Shown here piece after piece: positions 8,981 to 20,403 of a stretch of DNA of 28,156 bases. The stretch spans positions 1-28,156 of IMG/VR virus record IMGVR_UViG_2802429240_000006. One strand, written 5' to 3'. Below the pieces are notes generated by a model that did not search any database, was not told the DNA's origin, and saw only the letters and a program-made list of their open reading frames with translations. Origin of the DNA: a virus (lineage: Duplodnaviria > Heunggongvirae > Uroviricota > Caudoviricetes). Every line of letters begins with the position of its first letter. Position 1 is the stretch's first letter. A program made the position numbers and the translations under genes.

Positions 8981-9911
8981 GGAATTAGCCGAACAGCACA
9001 GTTCGCAGCTCTCGTCCGTTCTTAAATCCGCAGTTGAAACCATCTCGTCAGACCAGGAAATCACGTTCAGGCTCTATGTCCGGCAGGTTCTGCCGCTGGA
9101 TGGCTTTGTCTATTGGGTTAATGCGGAAATCATCAGTTGCGATGAACTGTGTCGCCTGAATATTGAGTCACCAACTCGTCTGAAAATCAAAGGCAGTCTG
9201 CATCGTCAGGTTATTGCGATTCAGGACGAGTCTGTCTCGAAGGATGTGAACAACATTATTTTCACGCCTGTTCAGCAGGTTGATGATTTTAATGTGGAAA
9301 ATCCCGATGCGATCTATCTCGGTGAGTATGGCGGCGTCCAGTTTGCTTTTTCACGAATGGAGAGCCGTTATCAGCAGTCGGGTATTTTTCATTATCGCGG
9401 TATGGCGATTTTACCAACCATGCGCTCTCAGATTATCGACTGCGAGGAGGATATCAGCGACGAGCAGATCATCTCCAACAGCATCCCGATCTGGCTGCAA
9501 ATGAAAGATGCCGCGACCGTGTATCCGTCTTACCTGGTACCGCAGAACCTTCGTCCTCCGTATATCGCGGTGGATGTTCGCAACAGTATTCCTTTGCAGG
9601 TGGCTCCTGTTGTTTTCGGCGGTGAGCGGTTTCAGCTCGTCCAGGATTCGGTTCGCCTGACGCTTTACGGATTCAGCAACAAAATGGCGCTGGATCTTGT
9701 CGACTCGGTGGTGAACAGGGCGCTGGAGGAGGAAAAGTTTGGCGTAACCAATATTCCGGTGGTTCAGGACGCAAAGTCGGGACAGGTTGAAATCAACGCT
9801 CTGGCGAAGAAAAAAATTGTCGATTTTGACGTGAATTACTACCAGAGCACCGCCCGGGAAATATCCCGGCAGTTGATTGAAAAAGTTATTTGTAAATATG
9901 AGGTTAAATAA
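8967..9911 (+). CDS. Hypothetical neck or tail completion protein
   Basis: 314 aa; position immediately before putative sheath gene. Confidence 0.35.
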   Translation: MPSLEELAEQHSSQLSSVLKSAVETISSDQEITFRLYVRQVLPLDGFVYWVNAEIISCDELCRLNIESPTRLKIKGSLHRQVIAIQDESVSKDVNNIIFTPVQQVDDFNVENPDAIYLGEYGGVQFAFSRMESRYQQSGIFHYRGMAILPTMRSQIIDCEEDISDEQIISNSIPIWLQMKDAATVYPSYLVPQNLRPPYIAVDVRNSIPLQVAPVVFGGERFQLVQDSVRLTLYGFSNKMALDLVDSVVNRALEEEKFGVTNIPVVQDAKSGQVEINALAKKKIVDFDVNYYQSTAREISRQLIEKVICKYEVK

Positions 9912-11248
9912 TGGGATTTAATATCGTCACGGTGAATGTGTCCCAGACCATCGGGGCCATACCCTCGAATCTGCAACAGATGGCTGCGATTCTCTCGTTT
10001 GGTTCCACGACTCATGAGCCGGGAAAGCCTGTATTACTCACCCGTAATCAGGATATTAACGATCTGGTTAAAAATCCGATTGCTGCGTTGTCGGCGGCTG
10101 CCGCAGGAAAATCTGCGGCAAACGTCACCGTTACGATGACGCTTCCGGAAGGGAGTAACATCCGACGCGAAAACAGTTCTGAGGTGAAAATTGTGGTGTC
10201 CGGGTGTTCGCCCGACGCGTGGAATGGCGAATATACTGCTACCGTCACGGATGAAAAAACACTGACCTGGACGATTGCTGATTCTCAGCTTTCCGGTTCG
10301 CCAGTGACACTGGGGCAGTTTTCCATTGTCGGCAGTGAAAATCTGGTGACGGCAGTAAACACGTTTTTTGCCCAGGGAAATTCAGTCGGGATTTACCTGC
10401 TGGAGCTGGGAGTACAGAAAGGCGGGGTCAGTAAGGAAATCGCTGCACTGAAAGCTTATATGGAAGATCCGCTCCTGCGTTTTTATGCGTATCTGGTGCC
10501 GCAGCCGTGGGATGGTGACGCAGAATTTATCAGTCTGGCAAAACTCCACACCGCCAACGAAGCGATGCAGTATTTCTTCGTGCTGACGAAAACGCCGGAC
10601 GACACGAATTACGTTTCGCCTTATGCCGGTATTAAGTCGGTTATTGCAACGGAGGATGATACGTACCCGGCGACAAACGCGGCAGCAGCCGTAATGTGGA
10701 ACTATGTTTCCGCATCACCTTCAGAAATCAACAAGGTGCCGCCGATGGCATTTCGCTATCTGCAGGCGGTAAACGCCCACAAGGGCAAAAATTCCATTCT
10801 GGCCACGATGACAAAGCAGAATATTAACTACGTCGATACGGGTGCTGAGGGTGGAATTTCCAACACGATTCTGGTGAAAGGCGTTACCAGTGACGGTAAC
10901 GATATGACGTACTGGTATTCCGTAGACTGGGTGCAGATTAACGTCGATATGCAGCTCGCCAACACGGTGATCAACGGCAGCAATAACCCAATTAACCCGC
11001 TTTACTACAACCAGGACGGAATCGACCGTCTACAGCAGGTCGCACAGGCGGTGTTCAATACGGGCGTATCTTACGGCCTGGTCAACGGCCAGCCTGTCGT
11101 CGATGCAGTGCCTTTCCGCCAGTATATCAACACTAATCCGAATGATTACGGTATCGGGCGTTATGCAGGCCTTTCGGCCTCCTATACGCCGATGCGCGGA
11201 TTTGTCGAAATCATTTTTAACATCAATGTGACAATGCAGCTTTCGTGA
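9911..11248 (+). CDS. Putative tail sheath protein
   Basis: 445 aa followed by a 147 aa gene, a frameshifted chaperone and the tape measure gene: the canonical contractile-tail order. Confidence 0.45.
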   Translation: MGFNIVTVNVSQTIGAIPSNLQQMAAILSFGSTTHEPGKPVLLTRNQDINDLVKNPIAALSAAAAGKSAANVTVTMTLPEGSNIRRENSSEVKIVVSGCSPDAWNGEYTATVTDEKTLTWTIADSQLSGSPVTLGQFSIVGSENLVTAVNTFFAQGNSVGIYLLELGVQKGGVSKEIAALKAYMEDPLLRFYAYLVPQPWDGDAEFISLAKLHTANEAMQYFFVLTKTPDDTNYVSPYAGIKSVIATEDDTYPATNAAAAVMWNYVSASPSEINKVPPMAFRYLQAVNAHKGKNSILATMTKQNINYVDTGAEGGISNTILVKGVTSDGNDMTYWYSVDWVQINVDMQLANTVINGSNNPINPLYYNQDGIDRLQQVAQAVFNTGVSYGLVNGQPVVDAVPFRQYINTNPNDYGIGRYAGLSASYTPMRGFVEIIFNINVTMQLS

Positions 11249-11259
11249 GGGACTGAACC

Positions 11260-11703
11260 GTGCCTAATCCAATGATCCCCGTTGGCACCCTTAACCGGGT
11301 TCGCGCCAGCGTTAAATTCACCTCTCATTCCGAACTGAATGTGTCCGCCTCATTTCTGGCAAAAGAAGGCGTCGAATTGTCCTTTCAGGGCAATATCACG
11401 GAGTTTTTACCCGCTATGACGGGAGCCGTGCAGTCGCCGCAGCCATACATGATTTTACAGGCGCGTGTTCATCTGTTGCGTAGCCAGGCGCTGGGAAAAC
11501 AATTCAAGGCGCAATGGGAAAAGAATGCCACGATCGGCGACGCAAAAGTGTATAGCGACAGCACGGTATTCGGTGACTTCGATATCTATAACACGGCGAT
11601 CACCAACGTGCAGGATATGACCTTCGCCGGGGGCGAGCCGGGTGTGGCCATCACCATTACCGGTACGTATTACATCAACTCTGAAATGTGGGATCTGGTA
11701 TGA
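11260..11703 (+). CDS. Putative tail tube protein
   Basis: 147 aa between putative sheath and tail chaperone. Confidence 0.45.
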   Translation: MPNPMIPVGTLNRVRASVKFTSHSELNVSASFLAKEGVELSFQGNITEFLPAMTGAVQSPQPYMILQARVHLLRSQALGKQFKAQWEKNATIGDAKVYSDSTVFGDFDIYNTAITNVQDMTFAGGEPGVAITITGTYYINSEMWDLV

Positions 11704-12317
11704 AAATCTCCCGAAATCTGAATCTGATTATTCCTGTCCGGACAGAAAAGGGTAATGGCTGGATCCATGCCACGCCGATCAGCAAAGAGGTGTTTAAAGA
11801 GCATTTCTTCATCCTGAGTAAAACCTTTTCTGCCATTTTTTCTGAAGGTCTTGGCGTCGTTGCGGGTCCGCGTATCGCCTGCCTTATGCTGGAACGGATC
11901 TCCTCAGATATGAACATCTGGGATGGCGAAAAGGGCGTTCGTAATACGCTCGTGAATGAAATCATTCGCCTTGCGAATCTGGTTTACCCAGTCGAAGGGA
12001 AAGGTTATGACACGCTCCCGCTTGATATGGCGCTGGAGCGCGGCATCGTTGAATTTGATGATGTGGCAGGTGAACTCGTTTTTTTTACATGCGTCTCGTC
12101 GATAAACACACCGGAGCAGACGGAGCAGATGATGCTGGCAGTCAGTGGAATGTGGAACAGTCGCACTTCATCCTTGAGTCTTACGGAATGGATTGCTTCA
12201 TTGCCGACATTGAAGCCTGTCGCCAGTTCTGGCGCGACGGCGAGCACGTTATCAGCGACATCCTCGACTACTCAGCCGGAGACGGATTCAGCGACATCTG
12301 GGCAAATTCCGGTCTGA
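11700..12317 (+). CDS. Tail assembly chaperone (zero-frame product)
   Basis: ATG at 11700 overlaps upstream stop; lies between tube and tape measure genes; contains a T8 slippery run with an overlapping -1 frame ORF. Confidence 0.55.
   Translation: MKISRNLNLIIPVRTEKGNGWIHATPISKEVFKEHFFILSKTFSAIFSEGLGVVAGPRIACLMLERISSDMNIWDGEKGVRNTLVNEIIRLANLVYPVEGKGYDTLPLDMALERGIVEFDDVAGELVFFTCVSSINTPEQTEQMMLAVSGMWNSRTSSLSLTEWIASLPTLKPVASSGATASTLSATSSTTQPETDSATSGQIPV
12079..12086 (+). other. Candidate -1 programmed ribosomal frameshift slippery site (T TTT TTT)
   Basis: Eight consecutive T at 12079-12086; zero-frame codons GTT TTT TTT; the -1 frame is open from 12074 to 12391. Confidence 0.5.
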
Positions 12318-12391
12318 ATGTAAAAACAGCAGCTCAGTTTCGTGAGCTGCGTAAATGCACGACGCCGGGAGGTGTATTGAATGTCAGGTAA
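12089..12391 (+). CDS. -1 frame C-terminal extension of the tail chaperone (frameshift product)
   Basis: ORF in -1 frame relative to the chaperone, begins just after the T8 run and ends overlapping the tape measure start at 12381. Confidence 0.5.
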   Translation: MRLVDKHTGADGADDAGSQWNVEQSHFILESYGMDCFIADIEACRQFWRDGEHVISDILDYSAGDGFSDIWANSGLNVKTAAQFRELRKCTTPGGVLNVR

Positions 12392-14369
12392 TCAGATGCC
12401 AGTTCTGACACTGGACGTTAATGAAGAACATCTTAAGCGACTTGAGGCGATATTTGAAAAGTATCGCAACGGGCTGATGATTGGCCCTGCCGGTACGCCG
12501 CTTAAAATACCTTCAAATACAGGTCCGGCAGGTGGCGCCCGGCAGACAACCACAGGCGGAGAAGCCAATCAGGCTCCCAGGAAACCATCTTCACCCGAGC
12601 CAGTTTCGGCTGCTTCCACTGATGGACGTTTAAGGGATGAAAAAGGGCGCTTTGTTGGAAGCGGGAAAACACCTGATTCGCTGGTGAACAACTATAAAGG
12701 TCGCGGCGAAACGATGTTTGATAAGTACCTCAACGGGCTGGGTAAAAACGCTCAGGGGACACTGAAAACTTACAAACAGATCAATTCAACGCTTAAAACG
12801 ACTAATTCCCGGTTAAAAAGCCTGTTTAAAACCACGGTTTCGTGGGGGGCGAAAATAGCTGCAATAGGGGTTGCGGGGCCGTTTGGCTACAGCTATATGG
12901 CAAGTAAAGTCGCAGCACAGTATAGCGTGGCTCAGGGGTTAGGGATGGAAACCGCCCAAATGCAGGCCGCACGTGCCACCTATTCGCCATATTTTTCTGG
13001 CACAGAAGAACTGGTTCAGCATCTGGCGAACGCACAGAAAAATCCAAACGATCCAAACTATGCTGGTCTGGTTAGTCTTGGAATTGATCCGCGAGATGGT
13101 GCAGCAAAGAATCTGCCCAAACTTATGAGTGCGCTTGCATCTCTAGTTAAGCAATATAAAGGTTCAGGACTTACTCAGGGGATTCTCAACGGACAAGGAC
13201 TTGGATTTGTTGATGTCGCGACAACTAACCAGGTGGAAGCGAATCTGGACAAGATCCCCCAACTGAATGAGAAATTTGCAGCAAATACCCGGTTACTCGG
13301 CGCTTACCTCACGCCAGCTATGCAGTCAGGTTATCAGGACACGGTGAGTAACCTGATGGTAAATGGAAACAGAATATCAAATTCCTGGTATGCAGCTCTC
13401 GCCAGATATAACCCACTAATCAGAGGTGCATCAGATGGACTGACATCCAATATTGAAGGTTTTCTGAATGGTGGAAATTTTAAAAAAATTCTCACTGAGG
13501 CTGGCGAAGGGCTGGAGAAACTTGGTAAGTGGCTGAATAGCGAACAATTTAAAAATGATCTTGACGATTTTTCTCTGGCGGTGAGTCGGATTGCAAAAGC
13601 AATATGGTCAGCTATCAAATGGATCGGTGGGGAAGATAAATATCTCCCCGGAACCGGAGTTGGTGCTGAACAGGCAGATCCAGTTCTTGCGGCATTTGGG
13701 AATAAATATCTCGGTGGTGCGTTGCCGGGAGCAAACCCGATGACAAATCAGTATACGGGTGAGTTTTATAAACAGGATGATGTATATAAAAATTACCGTA
13801 TGCCTAATGATTTAAAGAGAAATATTCAGAACTTTGTAGAGCAAGCCAATAATACTTATCGACTTCCTAAAAATATGATGTCAGCTATCGCGGAGGTTGA
13901 ATCTTCGTGGAATCCTCTGGCAAGAGGAACTCCAGATGAAAAAGGTAGATTCGCTAAGGGGTTGTGGCAATTCTGGGATAGCACCGCAAAACAGTATGGT
14001 CTGGTGGGTGATGATGTTTATGACCCAAATAAATCCACTCTTGCGGCTGGCCGCTTTTTAAATGATCTGAATCGGCGTTATAAAGGCGATGTGGCAAAAA
14101 TGCTTACGGCATATAACGGAGGTCGTATTGATAGAGATGGAAATCTAAGTTTGAGAATGGAGACTGTAAAATATTTAATTAAATTATTGCCTCAGATACA
14201 GGGAGCCTTGGATCAACACCCTGGTATTATGAATCAGCTAAGAAATGCCAGAGATAACCTTCAGGGTGCTGGCAAAAATGCCCGCGCAATAATTGAGCTT
14301 CAGGTGCGACAATCGCCTGGTTCCGACATACTGGCACAACTCGCCGGAACGCAACAAATACCGGGGTAA
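12381..14369 (+). CDS. Tail tape measure protein with lytic transglycosylase (SLT) domain
   Basis: 662 aa directly after the frameshifted chaperone; SLT signature AIAEVESSWNP ... GLWQF ... AYNGG at about nt 13860-14130. Confidence 0.7.
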   Translation: MSGNQMPVLTLDVNEEHLKRLEAIFEKYRNGLMIGPAGTPLKIPSNTGPAGGARQTTTGGEANQAPRKPSSPEPVSAASTDGRLRDEKGRFVGSGKTPDSLVNNYKGRGETMFDKYLNGLGKNAQGTLKTYKQINSTLKTTNSRLKSLFKTTVSWGAKIAAIGVAGPFGYSYMASKVAAQYSVAQGLGMETAQMQAARATYSPYFSGTEELVQHLANAQKNPNDPNYAGLVSLGIDPRDGAAKNLPKLMSALASLVKQYKGSGLTQGILNGQGLGFVDVATTNQVEANLDKIPQLNEKFAANTRLLGAYLTPAMQSGYQDTVSNLMVNGNRISNSWYAALARYNPLIRGASDGLTSNIEGFLNGGNFKKILTEAGEGLEKLGKWLNSEQFKNDLDDFSLAVSRIAKAIWSAIKWIGGEDKYLPGTGVGAEQADPVLAAFGNKYLGGALPGANPMTNQYTGEFYKQDDVYKNYRMPNDLKRNIQNFVEQANNTYRLPKNMMSAIAEVESSWNPLARGTPDEKGRFAKGLWQFWDSTAKQYGLVGDDVYDPNKSTLAAGRFLNDLNRRYKGDVAKMLTAYNGGRIDRDGNLSLRMETVKYLIKLLPQIQGALDQHPGIMNQLRNARDNLQGAGKNARAIIELQVRQSPGSDILAQLAGTQQIPG

Positions 14370-14372
14370 AAG

Positions 14373-15041
14373 ATGTCACTTAATTACTTTGGGCAGGCTT
14401 TCAAACTGGCGTTTGAAGTATCGCCCATTCTTTTAGTTGATGGCATAGCGTCGAAAATTCCCGGCGGGGTGATGCCGATTGCTGTTTTGACCGAAGGCCT
14501 AAGCATTGCGAATGGTCTGCTGCATGGAGAGATTCATACACGCTCGATGGCGGCATTTACCCCGATGGCGGGGACAACGTTAGTCCAGCAGGATATTTGC
14601 AACCTGAATTTCTATAACCAGGTAACGGCAGCGAATGCGACCGTCAGGAAGCCTAACCGGGTAGTCATGCAGATGATCCGTCCGGCATCTACGGAGGACG
14701 GTGGCTACACCACGAAGGGAATGACGTTCACGGCGCTGAAAATGGCGCTTGATATGCATAACCAGTATGGCGGTTGCTACACCGTTCTGACTCCCTCGTT
14801 TATCTACACGCGCTGCCTGATGCGGTCGTTTGTCGATACCTCCGGCTTCTCTGAGCAGAACAAGCAGGTTCAGCACACCTGGCAGATTGAGTTTGAGCAA
14901 CCATTGTCGTCTGTCGAACAAACGGTAAAGACGCTGGCGAGCGTTCTGGATAAATTTGACAAAGGGATGCCGTCAGACGGGCCGCTATCGTGGTCAGGTA
15001 TTAAGAACCAGGTCGTGCAGGAGTTTGGTATTGGCTTATGA
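14373..15041 (+). CDS. Putative tail/baseplate protein
   Basis: 222 aa immediately downstream of tape measure; no motif recognised. Confidence 0.35.
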   Translation: MSLNYFGQAFKLAFEVSPILLVDGIASKIPGGVMPIAVLTEGLSIANGLLHGEIHTRSMAAFTPMAGTTLVQQDICNLNFYNQVTAANATVRKPNRVVMQMIRPASTEDGGYTTKGMTFTALKMALDMHNQYGGCYTVLTPSFIYTRCLMRSFVDTSGFSEQNKQVQHTWQIEFEQPLSSVEQTVKTLASVLDKFDKGMPSDGPLSWSGIKNQVVQEFGIGL

Positions 15042-17273: not shown

Positions 17274-17621
17274 ATGAGAACATGGGGCCGCGTCACCGAC
17301 GCGAACGGCAACAAAAAATGGGTTGCTGTAGAATCTGATGCCAACGGTGATTTCTCCTACGGCTGGCTGACGACGCTCATTCAGACGTTAAAGCTGGGGT
17401 TGGGGGAGTCGCCGTTTTACGCGAATTACGGTATTCCAGCGCAGCAGTGCATCGTGCAGCAAATTTACCCGGACTACTATGTGAACATGGTTCAGCAACA
17501 GTTTGCCGGGTATTTTGCATCGCTGGCAATTTCAAAGGTAGATGGGGCAGAGAACCCCACCTATAACATCGATGTTGTGTTTTTTAATGGGACCAGTTAC
17601 CGGACGCAGGTTCCGGTTTGA
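17274..17621 (+). CDS. Putative baseplate wedge protein (gp25 / gpW-like)
   Basis: ATG at 17274 (M12 of track ORF 17241..17621) with GGTGAGGG RBS; 115 aa; GESPFYANYG resembles the GxxPFxxxxG motif of T4 gp25. Confidence 0.4.
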   Translation: MRTWGRVTDANGNKKWVAVESDANGDFSYGWLTTLIQTLKLGLGESPFYANYGIPAQQCIVQQIYPDYYVNMVQQQFAGYFASLAISKVDGAENPTYNIDVVFFNGTSYRTQVPV

Positions 17622-18157
17622 GGCAAGTTTTCGGGCATCAGTTGGGCCAGTGGCGTGTTAAGAAGTTCATCGCGTGGCATGACAATCCATCCACTTTTGC
17701 GTAGTAAGTGAATTGCCCATTCTGTGGTTATAACTGAGCCTGATTTATGGTGCTCAATGTGGGTAACCGAGCCGTTTCTGACGCGCATGATGATGTCAAC
17801 ATTCAGAGGGGATTGTGTGCTGGTGGTATCCTCGCGCAGTTTTTTCTCGCACTCGATGAAGTATCGGCGGATCTGGTGGCCTTTTTCGTTGCGCTCAACC
17901 ATCGCCAGCTCTTTGGCGGTGTCCAGGGTTAGGTGGTAGTCTTTAGCTGGTCTGCCTCTACCGATTTTTTCCCGATTTTGGGAAATAATCAAAAAGTCCT
18001 GATTTTCTACGAATTCATACTCGCTGATTCGCTCGGTGATCCATGTAGCAAAGCGTTTACCTACTTCGAGAAAGGCGTGCAGATCGCGAGCATTACAGAG
18101 AAGGATTGTTTCGTTTGAGACAGTTCCGTTGAAAACGGGGATCAGTTGGGTTGTCAT
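17597..18157 (-). CDS. Phage antirepressor (AntA N-terminal domain plus KilA-C-like C-terminal domain)
   Basis: Start at ATG 18155-18157 (M85 of the 270 aa track ORF) with AGAGG RBS; motifs NARDLHAFLEVGKRFATWI and GRGRPAKDYHLTLDTAKELAMV...RRYFIECEK typical of phage antirepressors. Confidence 0.75.
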   Translation of the reverse strand: MTTQLIPVFNGTVSNETILLCNARDLHAFLEVGKRFATWITERISEYEFVENQDFLIISQNREKIGRGRPAKDYHLTLDTAKELAMVERNEKGHQIRRYFIECEKKLREDTTSTQSPLNVDIIMRVRNGSVTHIEHHKSGSVITTEWAIHLLRKSGWIVMPRDELLNTPLAQLMPENLPQTGTCVR

Positions 18158-18430
18158 GATGACCTCTGTTTGTTTTCTTCGAATTACCACTATCTGAGTG
18201 GTGCCAGGAGGTTCGAAACGGCACAAACAAAGCCGCGGACTTATTCCCCTTTCGGGTGTTGTATTCGTCGCCCTCCCGACATTGATCGGGGATGTGACCG
18301 CACATGGTGCCATCACTAAATAGTAGGCATAAAAAATCCAACACTGACGGGGTTGGTTGTGACCGTGTTTGTTGAGGTTTCGACGCCTCATGCGCCCAAT
18401 CATACTCAATTGGGCGCGGTTGTAAAGAGC
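18158..18430 (-). promoter_or_regulatory. Long structured leader / control region upstream of antirepressor, containing a 9 bp perfect inverted repeat
   Basis: GCGCCCAAT-catactca-ATTGGGCGC at 18392-18417; further GC-rich hairpins; no convincing ORF. Confidence 0.4.
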
Positions 18431-18664
18431 TTAGTTAGCAATGAAAATTGAATTAAAGTAGTTACCATCTTTTGAGGCAATCACTTTACCTGAACTACGT
18501 GAAATAATGTTAACTCGCATATTTATTGTTGGGTTTGCGGTATACATCATAAATTTAAGTTTATAATTCCTTTCAAGCATGATTCGTTTGGATGGTGCTT
18601 GCTTATCAAAAAAATTAGTTGGTCCCATATTACCCGTGACTGAAAGGTTACAAGAGCTCGGCAT
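18431..18664 (-). CDS. Hypothetical small protein (77 aa) in AT-rich cassette; coding status doubtful
   Basis: ORF from track; no good RBS before the first ATG, internal ATG at codon 13 has a weak GGG; AT-rich like the lipoprotein gene. Confidence 0.3.
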   Translation of the reverse strand: MPSSCNLSVTGNMGPTNFFDKQAPSKRIMLERNYKLKFMMYTANPTINMRVNIISRSSGKVIASKDGNYFNSIFIAN

Positions 18665-18723
18665 ATATAATTCAAAGCTTCTGCTATCATAGCAAAATAG
18701 TTCGGCTTCATATGGAAAGCGTT

Positions 18724-19155
18724 TTATCGAAGCAGTATTGAATTCTTTTTCATTTTTTTTGATTCTTCCTCTGCTTCCCTTTTAATATCTTCTATTCTCT
18801 TTTGTTGTTCGCGTTCTTCTTTTTCTTTTTGAGCTTTTCTTTCATCTTCAGTCACAAAAACAACATGTACATCATTTGACCATCTGCCAGTTGATTGTAG
18901 ATAACCTTGAGAATATGAGCCATCAGATAATGTAGCGATTGCTGGTCGCTCAGTAAAATCATCTGAACCATAAATCATGCCACCTGTGTAATCAATTCTT
19001 GTGGCTTTAATTGCTCTGTGGCTATTTATAGTATTTAGTATTCTTTCATTTGTGTACCCACTAATTAACAAACCGTCGGCAAGGTTAGTTTGTTGTTCGT
19101 ATGGAACGCAGCCAACTACCGAAAATGAAATCAATAAAGAAATTAACTTTTTCAC
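18724..19155 (-). CDS. Lipoprotein with ER/K-rich charged C-terminal tail (accessory / moron gene)
   Basis: GTG start with AGGG RBS; signal peptide MKKLISLLISFSVVGC with lipobox VVGC, Cys followed by V (not D); C-terminus ERKAQKEKEEREQQKRIEDIKREAEEESKKMKK; strongly AT-rich relative to flanking genes. Confidence 0.65.
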   Translation of the reverse strand: MKKLISLLISFSVVGCVPYEQQTNLADGLLISGYTNERILNTINSHRAIKATRIDYTGGMIYGSDDFTERPAIATLSDGSYSQGYLQSTGRWSNDVHVVFVTEDERKAQKEKEEREQQKRIEDIKREAEEESKKMKKNSILLR

Positions 19156-19176
19156 AACTTACCCTTGAGATTAACT

Positions 19177-20403
19177 ATGTCAGAAATACCAATTACTATG
19201 ACCAGTGCGGGTGCGCAGCCTACGCCACCCAATGATTTGCTTGCGAATCTTATCACCAGAGTTGCTGAAAAAGTACCTGGATATACAGCCAACCTTCCGG
19301 CGGGACTTATTACAGACCTTGCCAGCACGGCAGTCGGGGCGCTGGCATTAATAGACCAGGCGCGGGTTGATCTTATTAACTCCGTAAGCCCATACGGCGC
19401 GAATATTCCGTTACTGATGCAACTCGGAAACATATATGGAGCACAGAAGGGATTAAGTACAAATACGGCTGTATACGTGGTGTTTGAGGCGTTGCCGGGG
19501 TTTGGTATCCCTAAAGGATTTGTGGTTGGAGACGGTAACTACCAGTATGCGGTTTCCCGCGATACGGTGGTGCCGGAAAGTGGGCAGACTGAACCAGTCT
19601 ACTGTGTGGCCACTACGTCAGGCTCATGGGCTGTACCGGAAGGGACCGTGACGCAGGTCATTACATCAGTACCCAAAGACCAGCCTGTAAAATGCACCAA
19701 CCTAACCGCAGGGATGCCAGGTCAGGAGGCGCAAACGTGGGCATCATACCGCGCCGAAGTCATGGAGTCCGGCATGTTTGGTGTGCAGGGAACACCGGAT
19801 TGCTTTAAAGCGATGCTCAAATCAGTAAGCGGTGTGCGAGAAAACCTGATTTCTTTCCGGCAGTCGTCGTTGGGGAAATGGGTTGCGGTTGTTGGTGGCG
19901 GTGATCCGTATGATGTGGCTTATGCGATTTACAAATCTGTACCGGATATTTCGAAACTGACCAACGATGTTAGCAATCCATCCGGTGCGGCAGTGGAAAA
20001 ACGCACGGTTTCAATAACCGTTTCGCCGGACGTTTATCAGGTGCCGTTCGTTATCCCGTCATCACAAAACGTCATGGTGCTAATCACCTGGAACACGGTG
20101 TCTGATGATTATGTTGATCCGGCGGGTATTGCTATGGCTGTGCAGCAAAACGTTGCTGATTACATCAATTCTATTGAAGTCGGTCACCCGATAAATCTGC
20201 TGCGAATCCAGGATATTTTTACCAGCTCCGTAAAATTGCTGGTTGATGCGACGTTGATCTCAACAATCAGTGTGAGCATTGGTATTAACGGCCATATTGT
20301 TCTTCCGGCAAAAGACACAAGCCTGGTTTATGGCGATACCTATTCCTATTTTTCAACGGTGGCATCACAGGTTCAGGTCAACAAGTATGCAATATCTGAC
20401 TGA
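19177..20403 (+). CDS. Putative baseplate protein J-like
   Basis: ATG 19177 (track start TTG 19165); ~408 aa; position before I-like and tail fiber genes. Confidence 0.5.
   Translation: MSEIPITMTSAGAQPTPPNDLLANLITRVAEKVPGYTANLPAGLITDLASTAVGALALIDQARVDLINSVSPYGANIPLLMQLGNIYGAQKGLSTNTAVYVVFEALPGFGIPKGFVVGDGNYQYAVSRDTVVPESGQTEPVYCVATTSGSWAVPEGTVTQVITSVPKDQPVKCTNLTAGMPGQEAQTWASYRAEVMESGMFGVQGTPDCFKAMLKSVSGVRENLISFRQSSLGKWVAVVGGGDPYDVAYAIYKSVPDISKLTNDVSNPSGAAVEKRTVSITVSPDVYQVPFVIPSSQNVMVLITWNTVSDDYVDPAGIAMAVQQNVADYINSIEVGHPINLLRIQDIFTSSVKLLVDATLISTISVSIGINGHIVLPAKDTSLVYGDTYSYFSTVASQVQVNKYAISD

Follow-up and report, generated by a model that had tools for sequence, protein, structure and literature searches.

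How does a phage read a gene in which two reading frames remain open past the same run of T? The question is raised by a stretch of 28,156 nucleotides (IMG/VR virus record IMGVR_UViG_2802429240_000006, positions 1 to 28,156; here called the window), an enterobacterial (E. coli) prophage with a contractile tail, related to Escherichia phage Rac-SA53. The gene concerned lies between the putative tail tube gene and the gene for a tape-measure-like protein, and an earlier note, made from the sequence of the window, had proposed that it undergoes a programmed -1 frameshift of the kind found in tail assembly chaperone genes. Our analysis suggests that the gene is probably decoded in two ways, giving a zero-frame protein and a fusion made by a ribosomal -1 shift at U_UUU_UUU, in a chaperone role. 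We infer that the shift is ribosomal, and likewise infer its efficiency and the chaperone function. The segments involved are as follows, ORF standing for open reading frame and AF2 for the structure predictions described below.

12080-12086, + strand: slippery heptamer T_TTT_TTT in the phase X_XXY_YYZ, inside a run of eight T (T8); read from the sequence and conserved in distant lineages
11700-12317, + strand: zero-frame chaperone-like ORF, with shared residues 1-129 and a zero-frame tail of residues 130-205; phrog_11810
12086-12391, + strand: -1 frame extension, 101 codons plus stop; phrog_14324, conserved motif, all-alpha domain predicted by AF2
12087-12317, + strand: dual-coding overlap of 231 nt, zero and -1 frames; both frames open in every relative, conservation above the recoding null

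The T8 run occupies 12079-12086 and is read in the zero frame as GAA CTC GTT TTT TTT ACA. This frame belongs to an ORF that extends from the ATG at 11700, which shares an ATGA overlap with the stop codon of the tube gene, to 12317, encoding 205 amino acids (22.3 kDa). In the -1 frame, a TGA at 12071-12073 precedes an open stretch that runs from 12074 to the TAA at 12389-12391, with an ATG at 12089. A slip would occur at codon 129 of 205, after which the zero frame runs for 76 more codons, to 12317. Within the -1-open stretch the only in-phase X_XXY_YYZ heptamer is T_TTT_TTT at 12080-12086. A tandem -1 slip at this site would give a predicted fusion of 230 amino acids (25.7 kDa) that reads ...ELVFF up to the junction and YMRLVDKHTG... 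beyond it; the predicted junction peptide is GIVEFDDVAGELVFFYMR, and its zero-frame counterpart is GIVEFDDVAGELVFFTCVSS...NSR. The earlier note had read the run, its GTT TTT TTT phase, the limits of the open -1 frame and the sequence across the fusion in the same way. It had also placed the end of the -1 ORF exactly at the start of the tape-measure gene, and this needs correcting, as the ORF overlaps that gene (ATG at 12381) by 11 nt. T7 or T8 runs are no rarer than chance (13 T7 or A7 matches in the window versus 12.0 ± 4.7 expected), and it is therefore phase and conservation, not mere presence, that give the run its significance.

A search of 1.84 billion cluster representatives yielded 626 relatives of the chaperone-like protein. 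DNA was compared for 16 lineages (28-45% amino acid identity, GC content 0.37-0.64), drawn from the Escherichia/Pseudescherichia group, the Klebsiella phages RothC and Chronis, Shewanella phage vB_Sb_QDWS, Pantoea phage PdC23 and 12 metagenomic or viral contigs; at the protein level we used 81 cluster representatives with a mutual identity of at most 50%. The lineages share ancestry and are not phylogenetically independent, so that joint probabilities across them are overstated. The site aligned with the two Phe codons reads NNT TTT TTT A[CT]N in 13 of the 16, and the runs are distributed as follows.

NNT TTT TTT A[CT]N with T8: 8 lineages
NNT TTT TTT A[CT]N with T7: 5 lineages
ACC TTT TTT (C, then T6): 1 lineage
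T9, frames fused: 1 lineage
T6, frames fused: 1 lineage

In the rest of these loci TTC outnumbers TTT as the Phe codon by 530 to 307, and one lineage that elsewhere uses TTT 5 times and TTC 55 times has GCT TTT TTT at the site all the same. If independence is assumed, the joint chance of T-TTT-TTT given Phe-Phe is ~1e-21 over the 13 lineages, a significance that shared ancestry inflates; synonymous sites are saturated at the distance of these lineages. Both Phe residues are close to invariant among the representatives (F128 in 80/81, F129 in 81/81), and the next residue is Thr, Ile or Met in 77/81, encoded by A[CT]N codons that give Tyr rather than a stop in the -1 reading. The -1 ORF is 93-117 codons long in every lineage, its stop falls within about 10 nt of the tape-measure start (offset -10 to +10), and its tail has the motif YG...F..D[IV][DE]..R.[FY]WR[DE]G...LD[YW]...GF...[FY]R.R. 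The earlier note had held that a change of frame at the T run fuses the N-terminal part of the chaperone to the -1 ORF, and had named lack of conservation of this ORF in relatives, together with failure to detect a fusion product, as a reason to abandon the idea. The ORF is kept in every lineage, and the heptamer, the ORF and its end are conserved in the 16 lineages, to ~30% amino acid identity. The conserved slip site, the -1 ORF, its endpoint and the missing start codons described below thus support, at the level of sequence, a programmed -1 shift on U_UUU_UUU.

One metagenome contig from ENA (L024, 969-1535) has ACC TTT TTT ACG at the site, which would offer a U_UUU tetramer plus mismatched P-site re-pairing only. 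Despite this weaker site, it keeps a 99-codon -1 ORF that ends at the start of the next gene.

Might the -1 ORF instead be a separate gene of 100 amino acids that starts at the ATG at 12089, as phrog_14324 models, with no recoding at all? In the Escherichia/Pseudescherichia group there is an ATG 3 nt past the run, and some annotators do call a gene here (phrog_14324, 97 amino acids; P0126, 97 amino acids). However, no Shine-Dalgarno sequence is found within 5-10 nt of ATG 12089, the nearest GGTGA ending 15 nt upstream, and in 12 other lineages there is no ATG near the 5´ end of the -1 ORF, with the first start codon 66 to more than 200 nt downstream, or absent. The -1 ORF is also conserved from the T run onward, including an invariant Tyr immediately after the slip. 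Because start codons are absent near the 5´ end of the ORF outside the Escherichia/Pseudescherichia group, independent initiation cannot be the general route of expression. Translation from ATG 12089, which the earlier note had offered as an observation that would tell against a frameshift, therefore fails as a general mechanism, and we consider a separate gene very unlikely.

If the frame changes at the T run, what becomes of the zero frame beyond it? The earlier note had not remarked on this continuation. Among the 81 representatives, the zero-frame tail past the slip ranges from 52 to 100 codons, with a median of 59. It follows the pattern ...FF[TIM]..S......LW....T.L..TE[FYW]..SLP.., then a Ser/Thr-rich stretch ending in [IV]P[STHV]; in the window it ends in IPV. 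The strongest motifs of the two frames (TE[FWY]..SL in the zero frame and YG...F..D in the -1 frame) lie on common nucleotides, at ~12182-12208. We examined the overlap by recoding 11 lineages: the protein of one frame was held fixed, synonymous codons were redrawn from the usage of each lineage, and pairwise identity was read out in the other frame.

Overlap, zero frame given the -1 protein: observed 0.274, null 0.169 ± 0.008
Overlap, -1 frame given the zero-frame protein: observed 0.282, null 0.149 ± 0.007
Control, N-terminal part, -1 off-frame: observed 0.173, null 0.167
Control, N-terminal part, +1 off-frame: observed 0.202, null 0.190
Control, -1-only segment, zero off-frame: observed 0.168, null 0.184
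Control, -1-only segment, other off-frame: observed 0.160, null 0.164

None of the recoded sets reached the observed identity in the overlap, and the single-coding controls match the null. Given the protein of the other frame, the zero frame has a chance of 0.07-0.56 per lineage of remaining open and the -1 frame one of 0.014-0.20; the joint chances are ~1e-7 and ~1e-15, respectively (both overstated, as the lineages are related). In the E. coli group, variable sites at zero-frame codon positions 1/2/3 number 26/20/97 in the shared N-terminal part, 17/28/27 in the overlap (its least variable position being a wobble position in neither frame), and 5/11/5 in the -1-only segment. The recoding, openness and variable-site tests together lead us to conclude that the overlap is dual-coding, with both frames truly under purifying selection as judged from these comparisons. 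They support two predicted products that share 129 residues and then have alternative conserved C-termini of 76 (zero frame) or 101 (-1 frame) residues. The lambda G/GT paradigm to which the earlier note had appealed thus holds for the position among the tail genes and for the predicted -1 shift, but does not extend to the slip site itself, which is mid-gene, with a zero-frame tail beyond it that is conserved and predicted to be partly folded.

The same tests bear on the possibility that the two frames are one gene broken by a homopolymer error or a mutation, the true run being T9 or T6, or that one frame is open by chance. In-frame versions do exist in the databases (P0001, P0124 and P0132). 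The complete E. coli genomes that we examined, like the phage records, nevertheless show T8, and 13/16 lineages have T7 or T8; the contigs with T9 or T6 have kept the displaced zero-frame tail whole and conserved. The presence of 52 or more zero-frame tail codons in 81/81 representatives, the low chance of joint openness given the protein of the other frame, and conservation above the recoding null in both frames all argue against an artefact or decay, which we regard as extremely unlikely.

Single-ORF fusions at 30-40% identity (P0124, P0132 and others) were considered as independent proof of the fusion and rejected, since their DNA has T9 or T6 with the displaced zero-frame tail intact. Judging from this, the fused T9 and T6 contigs are most likely homopolymer miscalls or recent mutations and not natural fusions. 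The T9 allele that fuses the frames is present in six contigs (protein P0001), for example L022 and L023 at position 980-988, in Logan runs ERR200279 and SRR18964995. T9 is also present in metagenome contig L013 (run from 2898) and T6 in L020 (around 1873), and the database proteins P0002-P0004 and P0121 reflect other indels or T7 truncation. Such run-length variants could be either homopolymer errors or real alleles that make one isoform only.

How might the two products arise? In the mechanism we propose, most ribosomes would stay in the zero frame and make the 205-amino acid protein. With Phe-tRNAs on UUU 12081-83 in the P site and UUU 12084-86 in the A site, a fraction of ribosomes would slip back one base, where both Phe-tRNAs could re-pair perfectly on U_UUU_UUU, and the slipped ribosomes would go on with UAC AUG ... 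as their -1 codons, finishing the 230-amino acid protein at 12391. The zero-frame product would end in a folded helical segment and then a disordered Ser/Thr-rich tail; the fusion would instead end in a linker and a small all-alpha domain. If lambda G/GT and P2 E/E+E´ serve as a guide, the shared part may coat the tape-measure protein and the -1 domain may recruit the tube protein, with both products leaving before tail completion. Heptamers of the form H_HH.U_UU.Y rank among the most efficient -1 motifs in E. coli, and a selection of motifs that exceed 0.1% frameshifting in the absence of stimulators includes U_UU.U_UU.U (PMC4066793).

From 81 sequences, AF2 predicts the zero-frame product confidently (pLDDT 87.5, pTM 0.78). 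Its alpha/beta domain runs on past the slip site, which lies within helix 119-135; pLDDT exceeds 90 over residues 130-170, and disorder follows over 171-205. For the fusion, P0001 (the T9 allele) and 13 sequences only gave a moderate-quality model (pLDDT 77.7) that keeps the N-terminal fold and the junction helix, followed by a disordered linker at ~136-148 and an all-alpha domain at 152-221.

Several points weigh against a ribosomal frameshift in a tail assembly chaperone. The U7-U8 run could also support slippage by RNA polymerase, with the same fusion as the outcome. A downstream stimulatory stem-loop or pseudoknot, which the earlier note had suggested looking for, was not found: folding z-scores are +1.2 and +1.4 in the window, and downstream folding falls below z -2 in only 1 of 12 lineages and is not significant in the other 11. 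Nor did we find an upstream Shine-Dalgarno-like stimulator that is conserved and includes the window. The chaperone-like protein and its relatives have no match among Pfam or NCBIfam models or PDB sequences, and fold searches of PDB and BFVD gave no significant match to a characterised tail assembly chaperone. Because these searches detected no kinship in sequence or fold to characterised chaperones, the chaperone label rests on gene order and architecture. Finally, part of the short form is missing from the long form, which is not so in lambda and P2.

A few observations stand beside these points. As Levin reportedly found in 1993, the lambda frameshift needs no stimulatory RNA structure. The BFVD search returned one protein at E < 0.001, which is uncharacterised, and several annotated myophage tail assembly chaperones at E = 0.06-0.7; these latter fold matches are suggestive and no more. 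In 8/12 lineages (L007, L011, L015-L019 and L021) GGAGG or GAGG is found ~16 nt upstream of the heptamer; positions 12052-12072 of the window lack it, and the window has in its place an AGGTG whose last base lies 7 nt before the slip site. Since a conserved Glu-Val encodes GGAGG/GAGG, since the window lacks it, and since it lies further upstream than the dnaX stimulator does, we did not adopt it as a stimulator; the protein sequence may account for its presence, rather than a Shine-Dalgarno-like stimulatory role.

Could the frame change take place during transcription and not translation? RNA polymerase might stutter on the A8 template run, in which case minority U9 mRNAs would yield the same 230-amino acid fusion by standard translation, and U7 mRNAs would yield a truncated product of 135 amino acids ending ...VFLHASRR. 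E. coli genes have fewer UUUUUUU than expected, whichever of the three frames is read, for which transcriptional slippage has been cited as a possible cause (PMC4066793). The variants in public assemblies (T9 in the six Logan contigs and L013, T6 in L020, the T7-type truncated P0121) imply, moreover, that the run is slippage-prone for polymerases generally. Against this, productive bacterial slippage has been described for runs of 9 A or T (PMC5009743), whereas the run here is 8 in the window, only T7 in five lineages and T6 in one. In ~44% of the 81 representatives the second codon base of residue 127 is not T, which limits the run to at most T7. What is conserved is the exact phase-locked heptamer, and the run never extends beyond codon position 3 of the second Phe codon. 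Known sites of transcriptional slippage (dnaX, as reviewed, and Shigella mxiE, spa33 and mxiA) resemble this locus in that an A/T homopolymer gives alternative C-termini from one gene (PMC5009743), but they have runs of 9, in contrast to a run of 8 (7 or 6 in several relatives) that is locked to the codon phase of a ribosomal heptamer. These sequence features argue against transcriptional slippage as the main route, and we think it unlikely.

Taking ribosomal frameshifting as the preferred explanation, how does the locus compare with known systems? The FI-FII-E-E´-T tail operon of phage P2 is alike in having a contractile tail and the order sheath, tube, chaperone, tape measure. According to one study (PMC3931495), P2 shifts by -1 on T6G and P2-like Xanthomonas and Stenotrophomonas phages on T7G or T7C, such slip sites being the rule in P2-like myophage chaperone genes, and the P2 -1 ORF has no ribosome-binding site of its own and overlaps the start of the tape-measure gene. 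The window is alike in having a T run as the predicted site of the -1 shift and a -1 ORF that lacks its own ribosome-binding site and overlaps the tape-measure start. P2 is unlike it in that its open -1 frame overlaps E by 37 nt only, with the slip close to the 3´ end of that gene, whereas here 76 conserved zero-frame codons follow. No similarity to P2 gpE in sequence or fold was found (no Pfam match).

Phage lambda uses the slip sequence G_GGA_AAG. Lambda G/GT resembles what is predicted for the present locus in that two products with a common N-terminal part arise through a -1 shift in a gene directly upstream of the tape-measure gene, and the same division of labour has been proposed for it, with the tape measure bound through the shared part and the tube subunit through the -1 domain (PMC5009743). 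Lambda is unlike this phage in being a siphovirus with the slip near the 3´ end of G, and for that reason GT contains essentially all of G. In the window, by contrast, a 231-nt dual-coding segment encodes mutually exclusive conserved C-termini of the two predicted isoforms.

The TAC-N/TAC-NC pair of Pakpunavirus/Andersonviridae myophages has a conserved poly-T GTTTTT motif, and poly-T recurs in myophage loci for tail assembly chaperones (PMC12846349). That system is also alike in that an unannotated downstream 'hypothetical' ORF proved to be the C-terminal part of a frameshifted chaperone, and in that the argument was made from an uninterrupted -1 frame across divergent genomes (PMC12846349); it is unlike in that the motif is near the 3´ end of TAC-N and the protein family is different. 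In position and apparent recoding, then, the sequence places our locus with the frameshifted tail chaperone class, but its short product does not lie within the long one.

A frameshift in this position is what a phage specialist expects, and the moderately interesting part is the conserved mid-gene fork with its dual-coding segment of 150-230 nt. Whether the slip site does more than extend the protein and acts as a fork, with a different domain architecture on each branch, is in our judgement evenly balanced; the chaperone family concerned is widespread and unannotated, and includes the proposed Felixviridae and many enterobacterial prophages. In such a fork, U_UUU_UUU in the middle of a predicted helix would swap a folded zero-frame segment and a disordered tail with an [IV]P[ST] end for an unrelated all-alpha domain, an idea about as plausible as its converse.

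If both tails have separate essential partners, this would be among the longest conserved dual-coding segments tied to a tail-chaperone frameshift, and its logic would differ from that of lambda G/GT. The locus very probably carries the rule of frameshifting in tail chaperone genes into an orphan family of proteins, in a form where the long product does not include all of the short, and this raises the question of what the zero-frame tail does that the long form must lack. The gene pair should be annotated as a frameshifted chaperone pair. For those who recode or codon-optimise such phages, the T run and the 231-nt dual-coding segment must stay untouched. The T run is also a hotspot for homopolymer miscalls that lead to false "fused" or "truncated" proteins in databases.

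Where does the gene stand among its neighbours, and how has it been annotated? The adjacent features are:

9911-11248, + strand: tail sheath gene, 445 amino acids; phrog_205 tail sheath, E = 4.6e-53; contractile-tail context
11260-11703, + strand: putative tail tube gene, 147 amino acids (PGAP start 11272), so named for its position right after the sheath; phrog_6566, function unknown
12367-12372, + strand: Shine-Dalgarno sequence GGGAGG of the tape-measure gene, inside the -1 extension, 8 nt upstream of ATG 12381
12381-14369, + strand: tape-measure-like protein, 662 amino acids, with a C-terminal SLT lytic transglycosylase domain; PF01464 SLT, E = 1.2e-20

The homologue of the tape-measure-like gene in phage RothC carries the annotation "tape measure protein", and genes for the baseplate hub and wedge lie downstream of the window's copy. 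The order sheath, tube, chaperone-like gene, tape measure is also present in RothC, Chronis, QDWS, PdC23 and metagenome loci. The location that the earlier note had given the gene, between the tube or major tail gene and the tape-measure gene, is borne out by this synteny with an SLT-containing tape-measure gene. Positions 9900-14400 of the window, from the sheath to the tape-measure genes, are 96% identical to Escherichia phage Rac-SA53; the chaperone locus (11600-12500) is 100% identical to E. coli TUM9757, and a related locus is present in 92/5426 complete E. coli genomes.

Every annotation examined gives the 205-amino acid ORF as a "hypothetical protein" and none marks a frameshift; these comprise the records of Rac-SA53, vB_Apl-pPE4, RothC/D, Chronis, PdC23 and QDWS and the PGAP annotation of the 92 E. 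coli genomes. PHROGs splits the frames into two families of unknown function, phrog_11810 (201 amino acids) and phrog_14324 (97 amino acids), and a preprint that defines some of these phages as "Felixviridae" does not mention a frameshift (10.1101/2024.12.02.626457). A record named Actinobacillus phage vB_Apl-pPE4 (PP818812.1, L002) has 94% nucleotide identity to the tail module of this E. coli prophage. Given a host among the Pasteurellaceae, one would not expect such a match, which may stem from an E. coli prophage present as a contaminant or by induction.

Do other homopolymers of this length occur in the window? A T8 run on the + strand (A8 on the - strand) at 18753-18760 lies within a - strand ORF, 19155-18724, of 143 amino acids with a lipoprotein-like N-terminus (MKKLISLLISFSVVGC...) and with no PHROG or Pfam match. 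This ORF reads TCA AAA AAA ATG, an in-phase A_AAA_AAA heptamer 11 codons before its stop, and past the run the -1 frame stays free of stops for 109 codons, reaching about 18434, a short way upstream of the Ant anti-repressor gene. A homopolymer might have broken the gene here, or the run might be a second recoding site. Together with an AntA/AntB anti-repressor gene (PF08346, phrog_14211), this ORF occupies 17597-19155 on the - strand, opposite to and inside the baseplate block. None of the 5426 complete E. coli genomes matches the region 18380-19200 over its full length, not even TUM9757 with its identical chaperone locus, and the region is therefore variable cargo. A third 8-base homopolymer of the window is an A8 run on the + strand at 208-215, in the first long + strand ORF (1-1068).

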